From assembly GCF_003367075.2 (NCBI RefSeq), contig NZ_CP065936.1:120001-152000 (forward strand): 32,000 nucleotides of DNA. The letters are read 5' to 3'. Shown here piece by piece: positions 3 to 17,731 of the stretch. Each line of letters starts with the position of its first letter. Position 1 is the first letter of the stretch. Position numbers and translations under genes: made by a program. The notes under the pieces are model-generated. The model was not told where the DNA came from. It worked only from the letters and a program-made list of their open reading frames with translations, and did not search any database. The stretch comes from Cylindrospermopsis raciborskii Cr2010 (GTDB lineage Bacteria > Cyanobacteriota > Cyanobacteriia > Cyanobacteriales > Nostocaceae).

Positions 3-3000
3 GTGGCTTTGCAATATCGCATTGGAACAACGGGTAATTTCACGAATATTCCTAGCGGTTATGTTGCTGATGCCAGTTCTGGTCCTAGCTTCGCAAATTT
101 GGTGACACCTGTTAGCGCTATTTTGCCCACAGAAGCAGAAAACCAAGCTCAATTACAGGTAAGGATTATCACCACAAATGCTCTAGGCAACGATGAATGG
201 ATTGGTATTGATAATATAAATATTGTGGGCACGCCACAAACTGCTTCGGCATCGGGAATAACCCTTACCCAGTCGGGCAACTCTACCGATCTAGCTGAAG
301 GTGGTGGGACTGATACTTACTCTGTGGTGCTGAATAGTCAACCCACCGCGAATGTGACAATCGCCATTAATGCAGGTCCACAACTCACTACTAATATTAC
401 CAGTCTCACGTTTACGCCACAAGACTGGAATGTTGCCCAAATTGTCACAGTAGCAGCGATTAATGATGCTACCTTTGAGGGTAATCACACGGGTACATTG
501 ACCCATGCGGTAACAAGTGCGGATACTAATTACAATAGTTTATCTGTTGCCAATGTTACTGCTAATATTACTGATAATGAGGCAGAAACCGCGCCTACGA
601 TTCAGATTCGCATTACTGAATATATGTATTCAGGGGCAAATGGTGAATTTGTTGAATTAACCAATATTGGCAATACAACGGTCGACCTTACGGACTGGAG
701 CTATGACGACAATTCGCGAATTCCCGGTTCCTTCTCATTAAGCGGTTTTGGCACTGTCCAGGCTGGGGAATCGGTAATCTTTACGGAAGCAACTAATACC
801 AGTGACTTCCGCACGGCTTGGGGATTAGCGCCGTCGGTAAAAGTGATTGCAGGTTCCAATCAAGGGTTGGGGCGTGCTGATGAGATCAATATCTACAATC
901 AGAATAATCAACGGGTTGATCGCCTGACCTATGACGATGGCACGATCAGTGGTTCTGTCCGCACCCAAAATGTCAGCGCTTGGACAGGTGTAACAAATTT
1001 GGGGCTGAATGATGCGACCAAGTGGCAACTCTCTACTGTCGCTGATGCTCAAGGTTCGGTGACATCCACAGGCGGAGATATTGGTAATCCTGGACGCTAT
1101 GCAATCGGCACTGTGCCAAGCATCGTCTTGACCCAAACCGGTGGCAACACTAGCATTATGGAAGGTGGCGCAACTGATACCTATACTCTCGCCCTAACTA
1201 CCACCCCAACTGCTCCGGTAAATATCAATGTTACCGTCACCGATGGGCAGACTTTGGTTAGTACGGATGGTGTAAATTTTGCAACCACAGCAATTTTTGC
1301 TTTAACGGATAGCATTGCTAAAACAATTACGGTGCGAGCTGTTGATGACAGCATTTTTGAATTCAAGCCCCATACTGGTGCGATCGCCCATACAGTGACT
1401 AGCAATGATTCTACTTATAACAGTCTTACTATTCCTAACCTCAATATCAGCATTGGGGATAACGATACTGCTCCTAATCTACCCGCAATCAGGATTACGG
1501 AATATCAATACGATGGCAATGGCAGTGAATTTTTTGAGTTGACTAATATTGGGAACACGGCCATCGATTTGACAGGATGGAGCTATGACGATGACTCAAG
1601 AATTGCTGGTACTGTTTCACTTAGTGACTTTGGCATCCTGCAGGCGGGGGAATCGGTCATTATTACGGAAGCTGGAGCGGAGATTTTTCGTGCTGATTGG
1701 GGACTTGCACCAACAGTGAAAATCATCGGTGGCTTAACCGTTAACCTCGGGCGCGAAGATGAAATCAATATCTTCAACAATAATGGAATCCTTGTCGATA
1801 GCTTGATCTATGGTGACAGCACCAGATTCCCCGGTACAGGGCGCACCCAAAATGTCAGCGCTTGGACAGCGGCGGCCAATTTGGGCAAGAACGATATTAC
1901 CCAATGGGCTTTGTCAACGGTTGGCGATGGTCTAAATTCTTATAACTCCCTGAGTGGTGGTACGGGTAACCCCAGTAGTTATAGCAGTGCGTCTGTGCCA
2001 AGTCCCGCAATATTAATAGCGCAGTCAGGTGGCAATACTGCCATTACGGAGGGTGTTTCAACTGATACCTACACAGTGGTACTCAGAAGCCAACCCACCG
2101 CCAATGTTACGGTTGATGTGGTGGCTAGTTCCCAATTGAATGTAACTAATACTTCCCTCACTTTTACCCCTGCCAATTGGAATGTGGCACAAACGGTGAC
2201 AGTGACTGGGGTTGACGATAATTTGTTTGAAGATGCACATACGGGTGCAATCAGCCATAGTGCCACTAGTACGGATACGCGCTACAACCGTATTACTATT
2301 CCCTCGGTGAATGTGAACATTACTGATAATGATGTGGCGGTGGGCGCAGTTCCTTCAATTACCGAAAATACCACTTCACCTTTGATCAGTTTAGCGACCA
2401 CGGGGATAGGCGTATTGAGTGGGGTGATTGGTGATCCCACAGACCCCGCGAGTACCTTGGGCATTGACTTTGCGATCGCTGATGCAGATACGTCTTTAAA
2501 TAATCTTACTGTGACAGTAAGTAGCAGCAATCAAACGGTTGTCACCAATGGCAATTTGGTTTTGAGTGGCACAGACATAACCCGCAACCTCAAGATCACG
2601 CCTACGGGTGTGGGCTTTTCCGATATCACCTTGACAGTCAATGATGGCAATAATGTTGTCACTTACAAAATCAATTACGCGGCTTCCCAAGGTTCTGTTA
2701 GCCCCAATACTACTCGCTTCCATACAGGCACCAGTGATGCTTCCACAGCGATCGCCATTGACGATCAATATATGTTGGTTGGAGATGACGAAGATCAACG
2801 CATTCGCCTCTACGATCGCACTAAATCGGGCGCACCAATTACCAGCTTCGATTTTGGTTCTGTGACGGGATTAACCTCAGAGGTGGATCTGGAAGGTTCG
2901 GTGAAAATTGGCAACAGGATTTACTGGATCGGTTCCCATGGTAATAACTCCAGCAATCAAGATGCTCCCAATCGTGAACGCCTGTTTGCCACCACCATCA

Positions 3001-6000
3001 CAGGTACGGGGGTGAATACCACCCTCACCTTTGCGGGATACTATCAATTTTTAGAAGATGACCTCATCGCTTGGGACAATAGCAATGGTCATGGATTGGG
3101 GGTAGGCTTCCTTGGACTTGGTGCAAGTGCAGCTTCGGGTGTATCTGTAAGCGTTGTCAATGGTTTCAATATCGAAGGTTTGACCACTTCTCCCGATGGC
3201 AATAGCCTATATGTGGCATTCCGCACACCGCTAGAACCCACTGGCGATCGCACCAAAGCCTTAATCGTTCCCGTTACCAACTTGGGCACCATTCTCAATA
3301 CCAATGGCGGTACTACAGGATCCGCCACCTTTGGCGCACCAATTCAGCTAGACCTGGGCGGACGCGGCATTCGCAGCATTGAACGCAACAGCACAGGGCA
3401 GTATGTGATCATTGCAGGAGCTGTGGGCGCATCCACAAATAGCGCTCCCAATGATTTCCGTCTTTACACATGGACAGGCAACCCTACAGACAAACCCCTA
3501 TTGCGAGCCACGGATCTCACGGCCCTGGATAGCAATGGCAGTTTTGAGGGCATTGTCACCGTTCCTGAGAACCTCACTGGTGATAGCAAGATTCAACTAT
3601 TGGTGGATAATGGGGACACCTTTTGGTATGGCAACAGCACTGCTTCCAAGAATTTGAACCAAGACAACTGGCAGAAATTCCGCACTGAAGTGGTGACCTT
3701 GGGACCGATCAAGATCCACCAAATCCAAGGTAACGCTGTCAGTCAAACTTCCGCCGGTGGCCGCGCTGATATTAGTCCACTCAATGGTCAGACAGTAACA
3801 ATCGAAGCAATCGTAGTAGGTGACTTCCAGGCTGGTGATACAGACACTAAGCGGAACTTGAACGGCTTTTACGTTCAGGAAGAAGATGCTGATGGAGATG
3901 GGAATGTACTTACGTCTGAAGGTATTTTTGTATTTGACGGCTCTAATCCTAGTGTAGCAGTCAGTCGGGGAGACAAGGTTAAAATCACAGGAACGATTAG
4001 CGAGTTCTTTGGGGAAACCCAACTTACTCCCACAACAGTTACCATCATCAGTTCTGGCAATACCCTGCCCACAGCGGCAAATATTACCCTACCCACTCCT
4101 ACCACTAGCCTCAGCCAAGGGGGAACGCCTCAGCCAGATTTGGAAGCCTTTGAAGGGATGTTAGTTAAGTTCACGAACACCCTGACGGTGACGGAGATGT
4201 TTAACCTCGATCGCTTTAACGAGATCAAGTTAGCTCAAGGCGATCGCCCCCAACAGTTCACCCAGTTTAATAACCCGGATGTAGCGGGCTATGCAGCACA
4301 CCGGGTGGAGGTTGGTTCCCGCACCATCACTTATGATGATGGGTTAAGTGTTCAAAATGCTCTGATTGGGAATCTGGATGGCTTTGGTCCTATATTTAAC
4401 ACTGCTAGTAATATCCGCATGGGGGATAGAATTACAGATTTATCTGGTGTTCTTAGCTATCAGTGGGCCGGTAATGCTGCCAGTGGTGCAACCTGGCGGG
4501 TAAGATCTACTCAGGATGGTCAGAATAGGTTTACTAAGGTAAATGATCGTCCTGTAACTCCTAAGACAGTGGGTGGTTCTATTAAAGTTACGGGTTTTAA
4601 TGTCCTTAATTACTTCAAAACAATTGATCTGCCTGGTGTGAATACGGTGATTGGTCAAGATCCTCGTGGTGCGGACAGCATGGATGAGTTTAATCGCCAA
4701 ACGGACAAACTAGTTACTGCCCTACTAGCTATCAATGCGGATGTTTTAGGTTTAGCGGAACTGGAAAATGACTTTTTGGCGGGTTCTAGTGGGAATGGGA
4801 TTGAGTACCTCACAAATCAGCTTAATGCAAAAGCTGGCGCTGGAACCTATGCCTGGGTGAATCCAGGAACTCAGTTTGTGGGCAGTGATGCGATCGCGGT
4901 GGGACTGATCTACAAACCTATGGCGGTGAGTCTGTTAGGGGATGTAGCTATTCTGAATAGTTCTGAATTTATGGATCCTAACAACACAGGGCAGGATCGT
5001 AACCGTCCTGCAGTAGCACAAACCTTCCAAGATTTAGCAACTAACGAAAAATTTACGGTAGTAGTAAATCACCTAAAGTCTAAAGGCGCTTCTGAACTAA
5101 CAGACATCAACTCTCCAGACTACGATCAAAACGATGGTCAGGGCTTCTGGAACAATACCCGGACTAAAGCAATCCAGGCGCTAGTGGACTGGCTCAACAC
5201 CAATCCTACCAAGGTGAATGACTCAGATTATCTGCTCCTTGGTGACTTTAACGCCTATGCTCAGGAAGATCCGGTGAAAGTGCTAAAAAATGCTGGCTAT
5301 ATCGACCTGGCCTCCGCATTTCATCAAGGGACTACCGCATCCTACGTGTTTGATGGTCAAACCGGTACTCTGGACTATGCCTTTGCCAGTGCAAGCCTAG
5401 CACAGCAGGTAACAGGAGCAACAGAGTGGGCGATCAACAGTGATGAGGCCGATGGGATAGACTATAACCTTGACTTCGGAAGAGATGCTGCTATTTTTGA
5501 TGGTACCACCCCTTACCGATCCTCCGATCATGACCCGGTTATTGTGGGACTTAATCTGGTCTCCTCTGTTAACGAACCTCCTCTAATTATCAGTGGAACC
5601 TCTGGCCCAGACAATTTAAAAGCAGGAGTGAACTTTGCTGGTGTAAACCAAATCATATTTACTGGAGCAGGTTCTGATATGGTAGATATTCCCATTGGCG
5701 GAGCCAAGCCCAGTCTAGGTTCCAATAGCATCTTCACTGGCAGTGGTGCAGATACAATCTCTGTGGCTGATGGAGATCGGGCCTTTGGTGGTAGTGGGCA
5801 TGACCAGTTTGATGCCACAGAAGCCACTGGCTACCGGATCTCTGGTGGTGTGGGGAATGACATCTTCTCCCTCGGTGTTAATGGTCGTGCCATCGGTGGT
5901 GATGGTGATGACCGGTTCTTCGTGGGTGAAGGTGGAGGTAATATAATCTCCGGTGGTGCTGGTGCGGATCAGTTTTGGATTCTCACTGATGACCCTACCA

Positions 6001-6200
6001 AATTAAAAGCATCTAACACGATTGTTGACTACACCATCGGTACGGATGTAATAGGCATTGCCAACCAGGTGGCCGACTCTGTGGATGATCTAACCTTGAG
6101 TGGTAGTAATATCAGCGTAAATGGTGTGTTAATTGCCACCCTCAACGGGGTGAACGCTGCAAGTGCAACCTTCGTTTTTGGCAGTCCCTTGGCCAGCTAG
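3..6200 (+). CDS. Large secreted multidomain nuclease, ExeM/NucH-like. The N-terminus lies outside the window. Domains: Calx-beta-like x3, lamin-tail (LTD) x2, phytase-like/propeller-like region, OB-like region, EEP nuclease domain, RTX-like C-terminal module.
   Basis: A 2065-codon ORF is open to the window edge. EEP motifs seen: GFNVLNYF, LGLAELEN, VVVNHLKSKG, LLLGDFNAY, SSDHDPV. The LTD signature IRITEYxY..EF(V/F)ELTNIGNT..DLT(D/G)WSYDD occurs twice. RTX nonapeptides seen: GGSGHDQFD, GGVGNDIFS, GGDGDDRFF, GGAGADQFW. Reverse-strand ORFs inside it are short and low-complexity. Confidence 0.75.
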   Translation: MALQYRIGTTGNFTNIPSGYVADASSGPSFANLVTPVSAILPTEAENQAQLQVRIITTNALGNDEWIGIDNINIVGTPQTASASGITLTQSGNSTDLAEGGGTDTYSVVLNSQPTANVTIAINAGPQLTTNITSLTFTPQDWNVAQIVTVAAINDATFEGNHTGTLTHAVTSADTNYNSLSVANVTANITDNEAETAPTIQIRITEYMYSGANGEFVELTNIGNTTVDLTDWSYDDNSRIPGSFSLSGFGTVQAGESVIFTEATNTSDFRTAWGLAPSVKVIAGSNQGLGRADEINIYNQNNQRVDRLTYDDGTISGSVRTQNVSAWTGVTNLGLNDATKWQLSTVADAQGSVTSTGGDIGNPGRYAIGTVPSIVLTQTGGNTSIMEGGATDTYTLALTTTPTAPVNINVTVTDGQTLVSTDGVNFATTAIFALTDSIAKTITVRAVDDSIFEFKPHTGAIAHTVTSNDSTYNSLTIPNLNISIGDNDTAPNLPAIRITEYQYDGNGSEFFELTNIGNTAIDLTGWSYDDDSRIAGTVSLSDFGILQAGESVIITEAGAEIFRADWGLAPTVKIIGGLTVNLGREDEINIFNNNGILVDSLIYGDSTRFPGTGRTQNVSAWTAAANLGKNDITQWALSTVGDGLNSYNSLSGGTGNPSSYSSASVPSPAILIAQSGGNTAITEGVSTDTYTVVLRSQPTANVTVDVVASSQLNVTNTSLTFTPANWNVAQTVTVTGVDDNLFEDAHTGAISHSATSTDTRYNRITIPSVNVNITDNDVAVGAVPSITENTTSPLISLATTGIGVLSGVIGDPTDPASTLGIDFAIADADTSLNNLTVTVSSSNQTVVTNGNLVLSGTDITRNLKITPTGVGFSDITLTVNDGNNVVTYKINYAASQGSVSPNTTRFHTGTSDASTAIAIDDQYMLVGDDEDQRIRLYDRTKSGAPITSFDFGSVTGLTSEVDLEGSVKIGNRIYWIGSHGNNSSNQDAPNRERLFATTITGTGVNTTLTFAGYYQFLEDDLIAWDNSNGHGLGVGFLGLGASAASGVSVSVVNGFNIEGLTTSPDGNSLYVAFRTPLEPTGDRTKALIVPVTNLGTILNTNGGTTGSATFGAPIQLDLGGRGIRSIERNSTGQYVIIAGAVGASTNSAPNDFRLYTWTGNPTDKPLLRATDLTALDSNGSFEGIVTVPENLTGDSKIQLLVDNGDTFWYGNSTASKNLNQDNWQKFRTEVVTLGPIKIHQIQGNAVSQTSAGGRADISPLNGQTVTIEAIVVGDFQAGDTDTKRNLNGFYVQEEDADGDGNVLTSEGIFVFDGSNPSVAVSRGDKVKITGTISEFFGETQLTPTTVTIISSGNTLPTAANITLPTPTTSLSQGGTPQPDLEAFEGMLVKFTNTLTVTEMFNLDRFNEIKLAQGDRPQQFTQFNNPDVAGYAAHRVEVGSRTITYDDGLSVQNALIGNLDGFGPIFNTASNIRMGDRITDLSGVLSYQWAGNAASGATWRVRSTQDGQNRFTKVNDRPVTPKTVGGSIKVTGFNVLNYFKTIDLPGVNTVIGQDPRGADSMDEFNRQTDKLVTALLAINADVLGLAELENDFLAGSSGNGIEYLTNQLNAKAGAGTYAWVNPGTQFVGSDAIAVGLIYKPMAVSLLGDVAILNSSEFMDPNNTGQDRNRPAVAQTFQDLATNEKFTVVVNHLKSKGASELTDINSPDYDQNDGQGFWNNTRTKAIQALVDWLNTNPTKVNDSDYLLLGDFNAYAQEDPVKVLKNAGYIDLASAFHQGTTASYVFDGQTGTLDYAFASASLAQQVTGATEWAINSDEADGIDYNLDFGRDAAIFDGTTPYRSSDHDPVIVGLNLVSSVNEPPLIISGTSGPDNLKAGVNFAGVNQIIFTGAGSDMVDIPIGGAKPSLGSNSIFTGSGADTISVADGDRAFGGSGHDQFDATEATGYRISGGVGNDIFSLGVNGRAIGGDGDDRFFVGEGGGNIISGGAGADQFWILTDDPTKLKASNTIVDYTIGTDVIGIANQVADSVDDLTLSGSNISVNGVLIATLNGVNAASATFVFGSPLAS
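255..2333 (+). repeat. Intragenic domain repeats. Calx-beta-like module x3 (about 255-584, 1122-1464, 2010-2333), interleaved with LTD x2 (about 606-1104, 1491-1985).
   Basis: Recurrent peptide blocks: (I)xLTQSGGNT..EGG.TDTY.V.L.SQPTANVT...FTP..WNVAQ.VTV...DD..FE..HTG...H..TS.D..YN......N..I.DN(E/D). Also IRITEY.Y.G...EF.ELTN...DLT.WSYDD.SRI.G...LS.FG..QAGESVI.TEA...F...WGLAP.VK.I. Confidence 0.6.
4581..5558 (+). other. Endonuclease/exonuclease/phosphatase (EEP) catalytic domain of the nuclease ORF.
   Basis: Runs from IKVTGFNVLNYF to SSDHDPVIVGLNL and carries the ordered EEP motifs listed for the parent CDS. Confidence 0.7.
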
Positions 6201-6288
6201 TAGAGATTAAATTGGCCTGAGCTTTTGTGTTTTTGTGGTGAATTTATACCACAAAGACACAGATTATTGAAGAAATACTTTAACTTAA
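5715..6288 (+). repeat. Copy A of the shared 3' module (RTX-like C-terminal coding region plus about 90 bp downstream).
   Basis: Collinear with 8639-9212 at a constant offset of 2924 with no indels. I count roughly 25-30 mismatches by eye. There is a 210-bp run (5870-6079) with none. Confidence 0.9.
6226..6261 (+). other. Conserved RNA hairpin 26 nt after the nuclease stop codon (14-bp stem, 8-nt loop, no U-tract).
   Basis: TGTGTTTTTGTGGT / GAATTTAT / ACCACAAAGACACA. All 14 positions pair, one as a G-U wobble. A paralogous copy lies at 9150-9185. Confidence 0.55.
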
Positions 6289-6308
6289 CCCTAACCATAC
6301 CTTAAACA
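6279..6308 (+). promoter_or_regulatory. Candidate Pho box (SphR/PhoB-type): three 8-bp direct repeats at 11-bp spacing, upstream of the PhoX-like gene.
   Basis: TTTAACTT (6279), CCTAACCA (6290), CTTAAACA (6301). Each matches 6 of 8 positions of the published cyanobacterial consensus CTTAACCT, with 3-bp linkers. A TAGAGT -10-like hexamer lies at 6329-6334, and the ATG is 120 nt downstream. Confidence 0.4.
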
Positions 6309-6427
6309 AATTATCTGTATTTATCCTGTAGAGTTACCAAAGAAGTTTTACCCTCTCAGGAATATCTTTAACTAGATCCTGGGAAAACTGAGATTTCACC
6401 GTAGATTCACAGCAAATAAGGAAAGAT

Positions 6428-9124
6428 ATGGCAACTGATATAACAAAAATTCTCATTGGCGAAACCACGGCCCTAATTCCCCAGGCCGGCGCCTCCACTG
6501 CACCTGAACATTTACTCGATGGTGGTAGCGGTGATACTGACTTCCCTTATGGAAAGTTCAAAGCGATGGCAACCGTGGGTGAAATTGATCCCAAAACCGG
6601 GCATGTATTAACAGGTTGGCCCGATGGTCAAGCAGCCTGGCTACTGGATGAAGACACTATCCGCGTTGCCTACCAGTCTGAGTCGTACGCCACCTTCGTC
6701 AAAGAAACCTATGGGTGGAAAATGGATAGTGGTGTGAGCTTTACCGGTTCCCACGTCCACGTCATCGACTACAATCGGGCTGCTTTTGCTGACTTCCTCA
6801 ACAACAACAGTCCCGCCAGCAAGATGTTTGAAGGAGCAGGACATCTATTTAATACCGTATATAACGTTTTTGGTGAAATTGTAGATGGCAAGAATGCTGA
6901 TCCTAAAGATTTGAGTGCAAAGTGGGGCAACCAAACGGGGGCAGATGGAACCCTTTACGAGTTTGACGAAAGATATCGCCTAACTCAAGGTGACTGGTTC
7001 TTCCACTCCTTCTGCGGTGCTTATTACGAGGAAGCGAACAAGTATGGTAACGGTATTGGCTTTGCCGATGATGTGTGGCTGATGGGTGAAGAGTGGAACA
7101 TTGGTCAGATGTATAGCAGTCGTGGTGGAGATAAATTCTTCACTGACAACACCATGGGTTTGGCTTCCATGGTAGTGGATATTGCCAATAAAACTGCTTA
7201 CACTGTCCCAGTTTTAGGACAGTCTGGCTACGAGAAAATACTGCCCATCAACTCCGGTCATAAGGACTATGTTGTTCTGGTTATGTCCGGTTATAACCTG
7301 GAGGTTGAACCCGCGCCTCTGAAGATCTATATTGGCAAGAAGAATGTGGATGCGGCGGGCAAGGCGATGAATTACAACACAGCTTCTGCTCGCGACGCCT
7401 TTCTGGGTCGCAATGGTTTACTCTTCGGTCAGCTCTATGGTATGGCTGCCACCAATGATACCTATGCAGACCTGGGCATTGCCAACGTAGACGCGGATAC
7501 TGAAATGCTGAATGCCTACACCGCTGATGCAGATGCTCCTGATACTTTCAAAGTGCGTTACTACCCCACGAAATATCGCTGGGATGGCTTCGACACCCCT
7601 GAAAATGCTGGTAAAACAGAGGTCTACCGGTGGCTGCAAGATGGTGACACTGTAGGTGGTGTGAAGGAAGCAAATGAGCAACCAGAAGGTTATACCTTCT
7701 TCAATGGTGACAGCAAAGTTGAGCACCCAGCAGTAGATCCAGATATCACCCAGTCTCGCTACGTGATCAACCTAACGGATGCCCGTTCTATTTTGGGTAT
7801 TGACTTTAACAACATCGTTACTGATCTGACCAACGATGCTGACGGTAACGGCTTACCGGATTACCTGTCCGCAGATGTAACTCGAGTCCTGGCAGGTGTG
7901 GATGGTGCTCTCGTCTTAGAAACCAATGGTAAAGGGGCAGCTCCTACGGGTCCAAACAACCCCGCTAGCTCTTTAACCCATGCAATTCATGTGGAACAGG
8001 GCAAGGCCTACGCAGATCAACCTGATGGTCTCCAGTGGGTCAAAACTTCTGATGGTGACTACCTCATCCTAGATGAAGATTCGGGTAACGATTACGGCGA
8101 GCGGAAGTACGTTCTGCCCATTGATTCCGAGACGTTACAATTGACAGATCCTGGTACAGGTTACTTCCTGGCTTCCGCTGGCGGTTCTCTTAACCCCCGT
8201 GCTAAGGACAAGGTTGCTGCCATCCCTGGCACCTTCTCAAGAGCTACAGGCGCTGAGTTTTCCGGTACTTGGAATGTCACCCACTTAGTAGCCAAGAAGG
8301 AAGACGGCAGTTTCTACACCCAGGAAGAACTTGATGGAACTGGTGCTCAAAGAATCATTGGTAGTTTGCCATTGGAAGAGCAGACCTTTATCGGTGTGGT
8401 GCAGCAAGGTGGGGAATCGGGCGGCATTCTGGCAGAACGCAAAGCAGACCAAGGTGGTCAAATTTTCATGTTCAACATTACGGAACCCCTTGAGTTCGTC
8501 AAGCCCCTGATTACTGGCACTCCCAATGCTGACACAATCCAAGCTGGGGTTGGGGAATTTACCGGAGTCAATAGTCTGGTGTTTACAGGTGCTGGCAAGG
8601 ATGAAGTGGATATCCCCATAGGGGGAGCTAAACTCTACCTAGGTTCCAATAGCATTTTCACTGGCAGTGGTGCGGATACAATCTCTGTGGCTGATGAAGA
8701 CCGGGCCTTTGGTGGTAGTGGGGATGACGAGTTTGATGCTACAGAAGCCACTGGCTACCGGATCTCTGGTGGTGTGGGGAATGACATCTTCTACCTCGGT
8801 GTTAATGGTCGTGCCATCGGTGGTGATGGTGATGACCGGTTCTTCGTGGGTGAAGGTGGAGGTAATATAATCTCCGGTGGTGCTGGTGCGGATCAGTTTT
8901 GGATTCTCACTGATGACCCTACCAAATTAAAAGCATCTAACACGATTGTTGACTACACCATCGGTACGGATGTAATAGGCATTGCCAACCAGGTGGCCGA
9001 CTCCGTGGATGACCTGACCTTGAGTGGTAGTAATATCAGCTTAAATGGTGTGTTAATTGCTACCCTTAACGGGGTGAATGCTGCAAGTGCAACCTTCGTT
9101 TTTGGCAATCCTTTGGCCAGCTAG
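6428..9124 (+). CDS. Secreted PhoX-like (DUF839-type beta-propeller) phosphatase candidate with an RTX-like C-terminal module.
   Basis: 898-aa ORF with the SD-like AAGGAAAG upstream of the ATG and no N-terminal signal peptide. PhoX-reminiscent blocks: GWPDGQAAW...VAYQSE, HSFCGAYYEE...GEEW, QSGYEKI, PDGLQWV..DGDYLILDEDSG, GAEFSGTW, VVQQGGESGG. The C-terminal 190 aa is shared with both neighbouring genes. Confidence 0.5.
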   Translation: MATDITKILIGETTALIPQAGASTAPEHLLDGGSGDTDFPYGKFKAMATVGEIDPKTGHVLTGWPDGQAAWLLDEDTIRVAYQSESYATFVKETYGWKMDSGVSFTGSHVHVIDYNRAAFADFLNNNSPASKMFEGAGHLFNTVYNVFGEIVDGKNADPKDLSAKWGNQTGADGTLYEFDERYRLTQGDWFFHSFCGAYYEEANKYGNGIGFADDVWLMGEEWNIGQMYSSRGGDKFFTDNTMGLASMVVDIANKTAYTVPVLGQSGYEKILPINSGHKDYVVLVMSGYNLEVEPAPLKIYIGKKNVDAAGKAMNYNTASARDAFLGRNGLLFGQLYGMAATNDTYADLGIANVDADTEMLNAYTADADAPDTFKVRYYPTKYRWDGFDTPENAGKTEVYRWLQDGDTVGGVKEANEQPEGYTFFNGDSKVEHPAVDPDITQSRYVINLTDARSILGIDFNNIVTDLTNDADGNGLPDYLSADVTRVLAGVDGALVLETNGKGAAPTGPNNPASSLTHAIHVEQGKAYADQPDGLQWVKTSDGDYLILDEDSGNDYGERKYVLPIDSETLQLTDPGTGYFLASAGGSLNPRAKDKVAAIPGTFSRATGAEFSGTWNVTHLVAKKEDGSFYTQEELDGTGAQRIIGSLPLEEQTFIGVVQQGGESGGILAERKADQGGQIFMFNITEPLEFVKPLITGTPNADTIQAGVGEFTGVNSLVFTGAGKDEVDIPIGGAKLYLGSNSIFTGSGADTISVADEDRAFGGSGDDEFDATEATGYRISGGVGNDIFYLGVNGRAIGGDGDDRFFVGEGGGNIISGGAGADQFWILTDDPTKLKASNTIVDYTIGTDVIGIANQVADSVDDLTLSGSNISLNGVLIATLNGVNAASATFVFGNPLAS

Positions 9125-9212
9125 TAGGGATTAAATTGGTCTAAGCTTTTGTGTCTTTGTGGTGAATTTATACCATGGAGACACAGATTACTTGTGAAAT
9201 ACTTTAACTTAA
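8639..9212 (+). repeat. Copy B of the shared 3' module.
   Basis: See copy A. Identity continues past the stop codon (9122-9124), through the hairpin, to the motif AAATACTTTAACTTAA. Confidence 0.9.
9150..9185 (+). other. Second copy of the conserved RNA hairpin, after the PhoX-like gene.
   Basis: TGTGTCTTTGTGGT / GAATTTAT / ACCATGGAGACACA. The four substitutions relative to copy A all preserve pairing in the plus-sense RNA (one U-G becomes C-G; three Watson-Crick pairs become G-U wobbles). Confidence 0.55.
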
Positions 9213-9231
9213 TTAACCTATTCTTAAATTC

Positions 9232-11616
9232 ATGAGCAAATTTCGCGTTAATCCCTATCTGCAAAATCCCTCTTCCAATGGGGTTTCTGTCACTTGGTTT
9301 ACTACAGAAGATGTGGACGGTACTCTTACAGTGACTGGCCCAGGTTTGACCAGTCCTTTAGTGTTAACCAGTAATCCCACCTTTGAACCCGTACTCGCCT
9401 ACACCACTGCGGAGCAAAATCAGACCATCACGGGGTTGGCAAATAGTTGGTTAATCGACAACAATAATTACAAGCACAGAATAAATTTAGACGGATTAGA
9501 TTCAAATCAGACTTATAGTTACACCGTCGCCCAAGGGGGTGCTACCTTTACTTCTACCTTTAAAACTGCTCCCCTTGCTACAGAATGGTCTAGTATTCGC
9601 TTCATTGCCATGTCCGACAGTGAAACAGAACCCCGTGGGCGAATCACCTATCGGGAGTGGCAACCAGGTTTATTGGCGGAGGGTTCTGAGCGTCCTAGCT
9701 TAACGGGTAGTCAGTGGGCTACCACCTTTGGCACCTCTGGTTCTGGCGCTGCCCAAACCTTGCGCTATGCGCTGACGGAAACTAAGGGGTATCAAGAGAA
9801 CTTGAATATTGTCAACAGTAGAAACCCGGACTTTTTACTCATGCCTGGAGACCTGGTACAAGGGGGTGGCTACCAACCAGGTTGGGATGAATTTTTCCGT
9901 CACAACGCCGGGGAGTTTGATAGTGGGCTGTCTAAGTACGCCATTTTACCCGCCCTGGGGAACTGGGAAAATTTTGGCGCTCTCAACGGGGGGTATGGTA
10001 CGGATGCTGATGGCCGTTTTGGACCAAAGTTTGGGCGAGATAAGTACCATGTTTACTTTGATAGTCCGGAAAATGGAACTCCAACTCACCGGGACAACTA
10101 CTACCGGGTAGACTATGGTCCTGTGACTATCCTCACTCTAGATAGCTCTAATGGGGAACCGGATGATCGCCGCAGTAACTATGGTGGTTCGGGTCAGCCA
10201 CCTAAGGTCACTGGTACTACTTTTACTGATCCGGGAAAAGACACCCAGGATAATTATACCCGTCAACAGTACGAAAGCTTTGGCGGTACTGATCTGGCAG
10301 ACTTTAACCCCGGTAGTACTCAGTGGAACTGGGTAGAGGCCCAACTTCAAGATGCGCGCGCTAATGGTCAAATCATTTTTGTACAGTTTCACCATGTTCC
10401 CTATAGTAGTGGCGAGCATGGACAACCTATGAATCATGACTTATCCACTGGTCAGGGCGGTACACCTCTACGCCAATATCAAGGAATGTTTGAAACCTAT
10501 GGTGTTGCTGCTGTTCTCTCTGGTCATAGTGAGATGTTTGAGCGTAGTTTTGTCGATCAAAATGCAGATGGCACTGGGGTCACTTACTACGATGTTGGTG
10601 TGTCCGGTGATGGATTACGGGGTGAAAAGCGCACGGGATCTGGGGTGAGTACTCCTTTGCTTAGTTATAATGAGTACAGTCAGTGGACTGCCGATCAAAG
10701 TGAAGCGGAGGTTTGGAAAGTGATTGATGGTGTGCCTCAACTCGTGGACGGAGGCAAACATTATGGTCATTTGGAGGTAAATATTGAACCTTTCACTCCT
10801 ATAGCAGGAATCACTGCCAAAATTGAGTTTACGCCGGTCTACAGTTTCCCCATTCTGGATGCAACCTATAACCTTGTGGCAACTGAGCGCCGCGTTTATG
10901 ATGATCCGGTGGTTATGCTGGTCACGGATGAAGGATCGGTGATTAATATTCCTTTAACTCCTGAGGCTACTGTGGCGGTCTTAGAAGCTAAGCTAGTCAC
11001 TACTACACCAGGATCTGATATGGTCATTGCTAATGCCCCCAATAGTCAGGCAGATGGTATCAATGACCTGATCTTGACCGGAGCTGGAAATGATGAGGTG
11101 GATACTACTTTGTCTTTGCCCCTAACTCTGAAGGGACAAAATCGTATTTTTACGGGGAGTGGTAGTGATATAATAACGGTAAATGATCAGGATCGGGGTT
11201 TTGGCGGCAGTGGTAATGATGTATTTTATGCCACAGATGCCAGTGGCTACCGGATCTCTGGTGGTGTGGGTAATGATATCTTCTACCTCGGTGTTAATGG
11301 TCGTGCCATCGGTGGTGAAGGTGATGACCGGTTCTTCGTGGGTGAAGGTGGAGGTAATATAATCTCTGGTGGTGCTGGTGCGGATCAGTTTTGGATTCTC
11401 ACTGATGACCCTACCAAGTTAAAAGCATCTAACACGATTGTTGACTACACCATCGGTACGGATGTAATAGGCATTACTAACCAGGTTGCCAACTCTAAGG
11501 GTGACCTCACCTTCAGTGGTAGTGATATCAGCCTAAATGGTGTGTTAATTGCTACTCTTAACGGAGTGAATGCTGCAGGTGCAACCTTCGTTTTTGCCAA
11601 TCCTTTGGCCAGCTAG
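9232..11616 (+). CDS. Secreted purple-acid-phosphatase-like metallophosphoesterase with an RTX-like C-terminal module.
   Basis: 794-aa ORF. PAP-type N-terminus (NPYLQNPSSNGVSVTWFT). Calcineurin-like motif order: FIAMSDSE, PGDLVQGG, LGNWEN, VQFHHVPYSS, LSGHSEMFERS. No signal peptide. Shared C-terminal module. Confidence 0.65.
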   Translation: MSKFRVNPYLQNPSSNGVSVTWFTTEDVDGTLTVTGPGLTSPLVLTSNPTFEPVLAYTTAEQNQTITGLANSWLIDNNNYKHRINLDGLDSNQTYSYTVAQGGATFTSTFKTAPLATEWSSIRFIAMSDSETEPRGRITYREWQPGLLAEGSERPSLTGSQWATTFGTSGSGAAQTLRYALTETKGYQENLNIVNSRNPDFLLMPGDLVQGGGYQPGWDEFFRHNAGEFDSGLSKYAILPALGNWENFGALNGGYGTDADGRFGPKFGRDKYHVYFDSPENGTPTHRDNYYRVDYGPVTILTLDSSNGEPDDRRSNYGGSGQPPKVTGTTFTDPGKDTQDNYTRQQYESFGGTDLADFNPGSTQWNWVEAQLQDARANGQIIFVQFHHVPYSSGEHGQPMNHDLSTGQGGTPLRQYQGMFETYGVAAVLSGHSEMFERSFVDQNADGTGVTYYDVGVSGDGLRGEKRTGSGVSTPLLSYNEYSQWTADQSEAEVWKVIDGVPQLVDGGKHYGHLEVNIEPFTPIAGITAKIEFTPVYSFPILDATYNLVATERRVYDDPVVMLVTDEGSVINIPLTPEATVAVLEAKLVTTTPGSDMVIANAPNSQADGINDLILTGAGNDEVDTTLSLPLTLKGQNRIFTGSGSDIITVNDQDRGFGGSGNDVFYATDASGYRISGGVGNDIFYLGVNGRAIGGEGDDRFFVGEGGGNIISGGAGADQFWILTDDPTKLKASNTIVDYTIGTDVIGITNQVANSKGDLTFSGSDISLNGVLIATLNGVNAAGATFVFANPLAS

Positions 11617-11628
11617 TAAAGATTACCG
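11244..11628 (+). repeat. Copy C of the shared 3' module (shorter; similarity ends about 12 bp after the stop codon).
   Basis: Offset 5416 from copy A. Only a handful of mismatches across 11286-11470. Amino-acid similarity extends upstream to about 11050. The downstream hairpin and TTAA motifs are absent. Confidence 0.85.
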
Positions 11629-11646
11629 AAAAAGTGATTTTTACAA

Positions 11647-11670
11647 CCCCCGATAAATCGGGGGTCTTTT
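11647..11670 (+). terminator. Rho-independent terminator closing the three-gene secreted-enzyme cluster.
   Basis: CCCCCGA-TAAA-TCGGGGG followed by TCTTTT, 30 nt after the stop codon. It is the only canonical terminator I see in 1-11700. Confidence 0.75.
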
Positions 11671-17114: not shown

Positions 17115-17391
17115 AATTTCCCCCAGGTGGAAGATTTTGGAGAATATCTAAAATGCGACGATTTTCAGTTTGTAAACCCCTCACATCTAGTTGTATTTCT
17201 CTTACTTCTGATTGCATCTCTCTAATTTCTGATTGCATCTCTCTCATTTCTATAACCACACTGTCGAAGTTACGCTGCATCACCTCAAAGTTGCGCTGAT
17301 GTATAGCCACTGTTTCTAGAAGTGCGCTCACAGCTAATCTAATATCAATCAGTTGGTTTTCCATGCTATCCATCCGTTCTTGATTACTCAT
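17107..17391 (-). CDS. Coiled-coil mini-protein, array unit 4 (94 aa, three 21-bp repeats).
   Basis: Same modules, with 8-nt overlaps on both sides. Confidence 0.7.
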   Translation of the reverse strand: MSNQERMDSMENQLIDIRLAVSALLETVAIHQRNFEVMQRNFDSVVIEMREMQSEIREMQSEVREIQLDVRGLQTENRRILDILQNLPPGGNYE

Positions 17392-17731
17392 AATTTCCCC
17401 CAGGTGGAAGATTTTGGAGAATATCTAAAATGCGACGATTTTCAGTTTGTAAACCCCTCACATCTAGTTGTATTTCTCTTACTTCTGATTGCATCTCTCT
17501 GATTTCTGATTGCATCTCCCTAATTTCTAACTGGATCTCTCTCATTTCTGATTGCATTTCTCTAATTTCTGATTGCATCTGTCTCATTTCTACAACCACA
17601 TTGTCAAAGTTACGCTGCATCACCTCAAAGTTGCGCTGATATATAACAGATGTTTCTAGAAGTGCGCTCACAGCTAATCTAATATCAATCAGTTGGTTTT
17701 CCATGTTATCTATCCGTTCTTGATTGCTCAT
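17384..17731 (-). CDS. Coiled-coil mini-protein, array unit 5 (115 aa, six 21-bp repeats). First cistron of the array.
   Basis: Same modules. It is the most divergent N-terminus (TSVIYQ, DNVVVEMRQ). Confidence 0.7.
   Translation of the reverse strand: MSNQERIDNMENQLIDIRLAVSALLETSVIYQRNFEVMQRNFDNVVVEMRQMQSEIREMQSEMREIQLEIREMQSEIREMQSEVREIQLDVRGLQTENRRILDILQNLPPGGNYE
17461..17586 (-). repeat. Six in-frame copies of the 21-bp repeat in unit 5 (plus-strand consensus TTTCTGATTGCATCTCTCTAA, encoding the heptad (I/M)REMQSE).
   Basis: Copies start at 17461, 17482, 17503, 17524, 17545 and 17566. Confidence 0.9.

Follow-up and report, generated by a model that had tools for sequence, protein, structure and literature searches.

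Evidence for ongoing gene conversion of a shared RTX-type C-terminal module in a predicted phosphate-scavenging gene array of Cylindrospermopsis raciborskii

The window analysed here is a stretch of 32,000 nucleotides (nt) from Cylindrospermopsis raciborskii Cr2010 (contig NZ_CP065936.1, positions 120,001 to 152,000), and it carries three of the four tandem genes of an array for organic-phosphate release, whose full order is Z-A-B-C (Table 1). The initial annotation had described one and the same C-terminal segment of roughly 190 amino acids (aa), hereafter the module, on a nuclease, a PhoX-like protein and a metallophosphoesterase, and both the open reading frames (ORFs) and a direct-repeat search bear this out. 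Its count of three copies was too low, since a fourth module-bearing gene, Z, was found directly upstream of the window in locus L010 of strain GIHE 2018 (L010:1-3094; L012:5662-9918). Our central result is strong sequence support for homogenisation of most of this module, a putative export tail, among the neighbouring genes by gene conversion that is still going on.

Gene Z encodes 1418 aa with a choice-of-anchor-I domain and a 5'-nucleotidase C-terminal domain, and ends in the module. Gene A starts upstream of the window, and the complete gene in L010 specifies 2198 aa; its family call comes from NCBIfam NF033681 (E = 6.5e-174) together with Pfam LTD and Exo_endo_phos. Besides the lamin-tail domains, gene A (window 3-4000) contains three internal repeats of a ~100-aa segment with the pattern …GGxTDTYxVxLxSQPTAxVTV…NWNVAQxVTV…DDxxFExxHTGxxxH…. 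The top database match of B is a C. raciborskii protein annotated as 'calcium-binding protein', and C, whose protein sequence matches that of Cr2010 exactly, is recognised by Pfam Metallophos and Pur_ac_phosph_N. The array is bordered by GUN4 upstream and by a TPR gene downstream.

Table 1 Features of the array in the window (positions of the window; module, hairpin and Pho-box-like entries are sequence predictions or alignments).
Feature	Position	Strand	Description
Gene A	3..6200	+	ExeM/NucH-family extracellular nuclease, two lamin-tail domains; start upstream of window
Module copy A	5631..6197	+	189 aa; homogenised part ~5720-6200; core 5870-6079 identical to B
RNA hairpin after stop of A	6224..6263	+	17-bp stem, no U-tract; -21.8 kcal/mol, z = -7.0
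Pho-box-like element	6279..6308	+	TTTAACTT-n3-CCTAACCA-n3-CTTAAACA; three 8-bp repeats, 11-bp phase
Gene B	6428..9124	+	898 aa; ~690-aa catalytic part, PhoX-like predicted beta-propeller, then module
Module copy B	8555..9121	+	189 aa
RNA hairpin after stop of B	9148..9187	+	-22 kcal/mol, z = -5.0
Degenerate Pho-box-like copy	9203..9230	+	2-bp deletion breaks phasing; abuts ATG of C; below scan criteria
Gene C	9232..11616	+	794 aa; purple-acid-phosphatase-type metallophosphoesterase, then module
Module copy C	11047..11613	+	Homogenised ~11244-11616; first third gene-specific
Intrinsic terminator after C	11646..11665	+	Canonical, GC stem and T run; closes array

In the window, the module forms a three-copy direct repeat with spacings of 2924 and 2492 nt. 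Copies A and B, compared ungapped and anchored on their stop codons, are collinear over 574 nt, as had been claimed, with 53 differences, only 17 of which lie within 5720-6200. The longest run without any difference is exactly 210 nt (5870-6079 = 8794-9003), matching the length given in the initial annotation, and a clean run of that length given the 17 differences has a permutation P of 8e-4. Identity between A and B is at least 92% from ~5720 to the stop codon, and it drops from 93-100% to at most 40% upstream of ~5660, in keeping with the sharp upstream drop reported before. Copy C, which had been said to differ at few core positions, departs from A and B at 7 positions of the 210-nt core; its identity starts at 62-78% in the first part of the module and reaches 95-98% over 11256-11440. 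The 5' boundary of the tract differs by pair (~5720 for A/B, ~5828-equivalent for C), B shares 3' variants with C against A, and the module core of Z is C-like, with a run of 168 nt identical between Z and C. The earlier description of the whole module as nearly identical therefore holds in part: the distal two thirds are kept nearly identical, but the first third is not homogenised, and the repeat also reaches into the 3' flank.

Specifically, the similarity of A and B runs ~100 nt beyond the stop codon (88% over the initial 60 nt), and the C flank is unrelated (27%). A predicted RNA hairpin is common to the flanks of Z (L010:3113-3141), A and B, with folding energies of ~-22 kcal/mol and z-scores from -4.7 to -7.0; the stems measure 12-17 bp, the copy after Z has a shorter loop, and pairing is preserved where the arms of the A and B copies differ. 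The possibility that the hairpin is a dispersed repeat was rejected, as, apart from the two hairpins, the window has its arm motif at one position only, 24245, with 2 mismatches. An exact-pattern search in the retrieved loci gave no match, and an Rfam scan of the entire window returned no family.

We also scanned for Pho-box-like sites, defined as at least three tandem 8-bp repeats PyTTAAPyPy(T/A) in 11-bp phase, with the consensus taken from PMC11126600. Only one match was found on both strands of the 32 kb (expected 0.01), at 6279-6308, where the three repeats have 0, 1 and 1 mismatches. This element is situated 120 nt upstream of B, inside the segment common to the A and B 3' flanks. When up to 3 mismatches are allowed, the 26.6-kb locus L012 has matches only upstream of Z and of B, and the position of these Pho-box-like sites therefore suggests two phosphate-starvation-induced units, Z-A and B-C. 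The degenerate copy before C is probably a relic carried along with the repeat. The phoA-nucH cluster of Synechocystis belongs to the Pho regulon and serves extracellular phosphate scavenging. The present array resembles such cyanobacterial Pho clusters in having nuclease and phosphatase genes side by side, in its upstream triple TTAA-core repeats in 11-bp phase, and in the link of phosphate limitation with RTX proteins and type I secretion. Unlike in the Synechocystis clusters, the gene set is a different one, one Pho-box-like site lies inside a repeated 3' flank, and the regulation is predicted from sequence.

Concerning the nature of the module, PF00353 (RTX) and PF08548 (serralysin C-terminal domain) match copy A, and the isolated module reaches E = 3.5e-5 (24.1 bits, cutoff 23) for the former and 21.7 bits (cutoff 20.7) for the latter. 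Four canonical repeats, as read from the sequence, are interleaved with degenerate ones; as each canonical GGxGxDxUx turn is followed by a degenerate xGxxGxxUx turn, the period is 18 residues. The AlphaFold2 (AF2) model of the module, with a mean predicted local distance difference test score (pLDDT) of 91, has short strands every ~9 residues, a spacing that agrees with the alternating repeats, and the predicted structure is a parallel beta-roll with a C-terminal cap. Foldseek gave seven matches at E<=1e-3; all of these are substrates of type I secretion, as are most of the top 30, the relatives being family I.3 lipase, serralysin, PrtC, AprA, CyaA and the R-modules of AlgE. A profile of 36 module sequences searched against the PDB matched the serralysin-family protease 6ixx (E = 7e-7) and the CyaA RTX domain (E = 7e-7). 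The alignment with 6ixx spans the repeats and the post-repeat motif, which reads ntivDFqiGtDviGi in the module and dtlmDFqtGlDkIdL in the protease. The low template modelling (TM) scores of the Foldseek matches, 0.35-0.45, and the RTX score, which barely exceeds its threshold (24.1 vs 23), weigh against this assignment. By sequence and predicted structure, we conclude that the module consists of an RTX beta-roll of serralysin type, a capping domain after it and a hydrophobic C-terminus, and the Ca2+ sites probably lie in one line along a single edge of the roll.

The module shares with the RTX domains of serralysins and family I.3 lipases (AprA, PrtC, LipA, PML) the Gly/Asp-rich repeats and beta-roll, the post-repeat motif ivDFxxGxDxI with the capping domain, and the C-terminal placement on an enzyme without an apparent N-terminal signal peptide. 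It differs from them in that the canonical nonapeptide occurs only at every second repeat, that it sits on phosphatases and nucleases, and that transporter genes are not adjacent. The C-terminus here is FVFGNPLAS, and related cyanobacterial modules end with an acidic or polar residue followed by hydrophobic ones (DFVFA, NFAFV).

A crude hydropathy check of the N-terminal 40 aa of each of the four proteins gave neither a hydrophobic h-region nor an RR motif; the lack of an N-terminal signal peptide, previously noted for ORF2 and ORF3, thus extends to Z, A, B and C as far as is apparent. In Synechocystis, PhoB induces the type I secretion gene slr1651 together with the RTX protein sll0721, which is the dominant exoprotein when phosphate is limiting (PMC11126600). 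Exoprotein secretion in Anabaena requires HgdD, a TolC-like component of type I secretion (PMC4390845). Three picocyanobacterial metagenomic contigs place module-bearing enzymes 1-7 kb from transporter genes. In L040, a 918-aa B orthologue (56% identity over 872 aa) is found near a HlyD-family protein and an ATP-binding cassette (ABC) exporter of ~1000 aa with ABC_membrane and ABC_tran domains; in L044, a protein resembling glycerophosphodiester phosphodiesterase (GDPD) and phytase enzymes lies near HlyD and the same kind of ABC protein, with a cNMP-binding N-terminal domain; and in L034, a PhoA-type phosphatase lies near an ABC gene. Relatives of the L044 ABC protein are named HlyB/CyaB-type by several sources (Cyanobium, Synechococcus), and the best 120 matches to it are all picocyanobacterial proteins, with no C. 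raciborskii orthologue among them. Such an ABC gene occurs in 3 of about 14 good loci of at least 10 kb, against a chance expectation of well below 1 (a rough estimate, not computed). On the basis of this homology and context, we infer that a type I export tag is the best-supported function of the module, and that Z, A, B and C would be exported by this route.

Several observations weigh against this assignment. Genes of the ABC, membrane fusion protein (MFP) and TolC types are absent from the window, as already annotated, and from the surrounding 10 kb in five C. raciborskii strains. The flanks of the loci from species-representative genomes, and those of the B orthologues in Halothece and a metagenome-assembled genome (MAG), likewise contain no ABC signature. 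In strain CYRF, HlyD and toxin-ABC genes are annotated, and the genome note suggests strain variation (PMC5658482). Furthermore, the last 5-8 residues of the module differ among copies and strains (GNPLAS, FVFG*, ANPPANLP), and the signal role of the extreme C-terminus is therefore uncertain, even though a profile match shows homology of the C-terminal region with the tail of serralysins. It is conceivable that the module serves chiefly as a Ca2+-dependent surface or S-layer anchor, or as an enzyme stabiliser, and that export proceeds by vesicles or through an unrecognised signal. RTX domains do occur in cyanobacterial S-layer and surface proteins (PMC3034196), and the variable C-terminus and the lack of type I secretion genes nearby in C. 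raciborskii would fit such a role. However, the nearest relatives by sequence and fold are bona fide type I secretion substrates, no alternative N-terminal signal is seen, and in picocyanobacteria HlyB/HlyD genes lie close to module-bearing enzymes; we regard this explanation as unlikely, and anchoring and secretion are in any case not mutually exclusive.

The label 'PhoX-like' given to gene B stood in part. Residues 1-710 of B have no Pfam match at E<=0.01, and hence none to PhoX/DUF839, and searches of PDB sequences with the catalytic part, alone and as a profile, identified no enzyme relative. Its AF2 model (pLDDT 83), however, has PhoX (3zwu) as best Foldseek match, with E = 2.5e-11, a probability of 1.0 and TM-scores of 0.39/0.46, the next family following at 1e-5, and the model predicts a six-bladed propeller fold like that of 3zwu. 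B and PhoX of Pseudomonas fluorescens (3zwu / 4a9v) thus have in common the predicted fold and a phosphate-scavenging context, and differ in that B shows only 11-12% identity and TM-scores of 0.39-0.46 and has no twin-arginine signal. 'PhoX-like' is therefore fair as a statement about the predicted fold, and B is not a PhoX member by sequence. Among the scored candidates, the B-type catalytic region (window 6428-8560, ~700 aa) was found in 605 proteins at E<=1e-5, mostly cyanobacterial, and also in Akkermansiaceae proteins of ~1550 aa. This large, well-conserved family shows many invariant residues; one of them, Cys196 of the HSFCG motif, offers no more than a lead. B orthologues adjoin genes for PhoA-type phosphatase or GDPD/phytase.

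A scan of species-representative genomes recovered two other module-bearing cyanobacteria, Sphaerospermopsis aphanizomenoides, whose carriers are a phytase, a GDPD protein and a 732-aa protein, and a Prochlorotrichaceae MAG, two genes of which are orthologues of C and Z by their upstream sequence. We used a codon-based Nei-Gojobori comparison of module thirds, with the orthologue pairs Cr_C/Pro_C and Cr_Z/Pro_Z. Between orthologous modules, synonymous divergence (dS) is 1.2-1.8 or saturated in every third and nonsynonymous divergence (dN) is 0.14-0.20, whereas for paralogous modules within a genome the core dS is 0.02-0.17 and that of the 3' third 0.16-0.35. Within-genome paralogues range from a dS of 0.7 to saturation in the 5' third; C and Z have an identity of 0.52 (dN 0.54) there, and each is 0.68-0.72 identical to its own orthologue. 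This likeness of the orthologues in the 5' third indicates that the modules were on C and Z before the lineages split, and from sequence comparison the distal two thirds have been homogenised within each genome after that split.

The same behaviour was observed in the other genomes. In Sphaerospermopsis, the three copies are 90-91% identical in DNA, with a core dS of 0.02-0.09 and sharp boundaries; in the Prochlorotrichaceae MAG, one module pair is identical in the 3' third; and metagenomic contig L023 holds three tandem module genes with 78-80% DNA identity. Clusters of two to three module-bearing phosphorus enzymes are present in Sphaerospermopsis (L003/L004, scaffold18) and the Prochlorotrichaceae MAG (L002), and the clusters of these two and of L023 include phytase, GDPD and C orthologues, with a module sequence that is genome-specific in each. 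B orthologues of Crocosphaera and Halothece also have a homologous module (62-64% identity over 98% of the length); since the module is present in B orthologues of such distant cyanobacteria, the fusion is old. A search for further copies, as proposed with the initial annotation, yielded, besides the adjacent Z, a divergent one on a phytase-like protein elsewhere in a C. raciborskii genome (P0133, 3.86-Mb contig). It has 55-58% aa identity to the array copies, is collinear with the Sphaerospermopsis GDPD tail and is not homogenised with the array. This divergent copy argues that homogenisation is local and that selection for matching a transporter is not required, which counts against our overall interpretation; recombination between neighbouring direct repeats accounts better for a restriction to the tandem array than selection for a single sequence would.

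These results bear on a simpler account, in which the module was recently shuffled or duplicated, pasted lately from one source onto each gene with no continuing exchange. High identity and abrupt boundaries would indeed be expected from recent insertion too. Nevertheless, the first third is old and gene-specific, with C and Z closer to their Prochlorotrichaceae orthologues than to each other, B orthologues in distant orders already have the module, the tract boundaries depend on the pair (A/B ~5720, C ~5828-equivalent), and strains are distinguished by paralogue-derived patches, as detailed below. Recent shuffling alone is therefore very unlikely.

Exchange was then visible among C. raciborskii strains in a DNA comparison of five of them (the window, GIHE2018, G7, CS-505 and GIHE-G1). 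Between GIHE2018 and G7, gene A has 35 differences/kb in the module and 1.7 in the catalytic part, and gene C has 38.6 and 3.9; between GIHE2018 and the window, gene B has 28 and 0.5. Module divergence is thus 10-50x the catalytic divergence between near-identical strains. At 53 of the 93 (gene, site) module polymorphisms both alleles occur in a paralogue, compared with 8.5% expected from independent mutation (binomial P = 1e-32). For example, A carries G and C at 5855 and 5861 in the window (B-like), and T and T in GIHE2018 (C/Z-like). The end of B in the window is GNPLAS*, as in A and C, and FVFG* in GIHE2018, GIHE-G1 and G7 (DNA), in CHAB3438 (protein) and in an independent metagenome scaffold; at this end, the window and GIHE2018 have at least 12 differences in 35 nt, against ~9 single-nucleotide polymorphisms (SNPs) in the remaining 9.1 kb. 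In G7, the last ~150 nt of C and at least 130 nt of its 3' flank are A-type, including the hairpin and a Pho-box-like segment of A type, which C of other strains lacks. Patches are seen at the protein level as well: a Z-type patch in C of a MAG, B-type patches in C of other strains, a GIHE-G1 C that ends in FVFG*, and an A that alternates between GHDQFD and B-type GDDEFD among strains. This concentration of strain polymorphism in the modules, largely as paralogue alleles, together with the G7 A-to-C tract, which includes non-coding flank, and with the core dS of paralogues set against that of orthologues, upholds the earlier claim of ongoing gene conversion rather than purifying selection alone. 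We consider it as well supported as sequence analysis allows.

B bears a nonsense codon at position 190 in both assemblies of CS-505 (L014:16825-19521), and the FVFG* alleles of B stop five residues early (window 9106-9124 vs L010:12679-12697); B may be dispensable or decaying in some strains with its module still in exchange. Insertion sequences lie directly 3' of C in G7 and GIHE-G1, and the 3' end of C is altered in both. The G7 insert (L012:22126-22736) consists of DDE_3 transposase fragments, and the GIHE-G1 insert (L015:15229-17357) of an IS1 transposase and a Cas12f1/TnpB-like ORF.

Many of the strain genomes are short-read drafts, and repeats are known to cause cross-mapping. Repeats of ~500 nt might consequently have been collapsed or cross-corrected, creating false identity and mosaics. 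In particular, short-read polishing can shift variants between repeats and could inflate the SNP-level evidence, but such shifts could not explain the G7 tract or the between-species dS pattern. Moreover, diagnostic differences between copies are kept in every assembly, the modules of Z and A agree between two independent CS-505 assemblies, a metagenome scaffold of independent origin also carries the GIHE-type B allele, the pattern is present in records of ~4 Mb that are apparently complete chromosomes (G7, GIHE-G1), and it recurs in unrelated genomes. An artefact of assembly or polishing is accordingly highly improbable as the source of the pattern. Purifying selection alone, acting through codon usage, mRNA structure or transporter recognition with no recombination, is hardly credible, for although the protein sequence of the module is constrained (dN 0.14-0.20 between genomes), its synonymous sites show identity within genomes and saturation between them, the likeness continues into the non-coding flank, a 55-58% identical module coexists in the same species, and a dozen or more changes lie in 35 nt between strains otherwise ~99.9% identical.

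Apart from the array, the window contains at 17384-17731 on the minus strand a small ORF made up mostly of tandem heptad-like repeats, MQSEIRE/IQLEIRE; in other strains, short ORFs stand in series just upstream of it on the same strand.

Taken together, we consider it likely that the locus is a scavenging array with Pho-regulated units, whose enzymes share a type I RTX export tail that is under ongoing conversion. In this model, the module would remain uncleaved and act at the C-terminus as the address for a type I secretion system whose genes lie elsewhere in the genome, would fold on Ca2+ binding outside the cell, and may also hold the enzymes at the cell surface. Repeated non-reciprocal recombination between the tandem copies homogenises the distal two thirds, and the proximal third continues to track the ancestry of each gene. 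For Z, A and B, conversion also takes in ~100 nt of 3' flank with the RNA hairpin; the flanks of A and B additionally share the Pho-box-like site, intact after A and degenerate after B. Conversion is continuing, with strains differing by patches copied from paralogue to paralogue, and Z-A and B-C would be expressed as two phosphate-starvation-induced units.

Both ingredients of this model are known, namely RTX C-terminal secretion domains and concerted evolution by gene conversion. Intrachromosomal gene conversion in bacteria underlies the concerted evolution of tuf, of the rRNA operons and of cyanobacterial psbA, and the one related match in our literature searches reportedly concerns the homogenisation of repeats inside Legionella rtxA. 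The array has in common with tuf, rRNA and psbA the within-genome synonymous identity, the mosaic tracts and the paralogue-derived polymorphism. Unlike in those cases, only a domain-coding segment with its 3' flank is homogenised, across four catalytically unrelated genes, and at least three cyanobacterial lineages show this behaviour independently of one another. Our literature searches found no description of the locus or of RTX-tail conversion in cyanobacteria. What is new is the combination, a domain-limited homogenisation across unrelated enzymes that occurs in several cyanobacterial lineages and extends into the regulatory flank.

A more speculative extension, to which we give little credence at present, is that export tail, RNA hairpin and Pho-box promoter form a portable cassette copied onto neighbouring genes by conversion. 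If so, conversion would keep the substrates matched to one co-evolving type I transporter and would also rewire 3' processing and downstream phosphate-starvation control; the C gene of G7, having gained an A tail, hairpin and Pho-box-like flank, would be an example. Recombination would then drive both the recruitment of enzymes into the starvation secretome and their coordination.

For the model of a converted export tail itself, some consequences are practical. As gene-tail alleles are not orthologous between strains, they are misleading for phylogenies and SNP typing. The array also offers a natural experiment on RTX domains, in which the first third is free to follow gene history while core, cap and 3' flank are exchanged as a unit, and the module is a ready-made candidate for a native export tag in cyanobacterial biotechnology. 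The success of C. raciborskii, an invasive and toxic bloom-forming species, is linked to its scavenging of phosphorus, and the locus, judged by its genes and predicted sites, looks like a compact battery of secreted nucleotide, nucleic-acid and phosphoester hydrolases that is probably induced by phosphate starvation.

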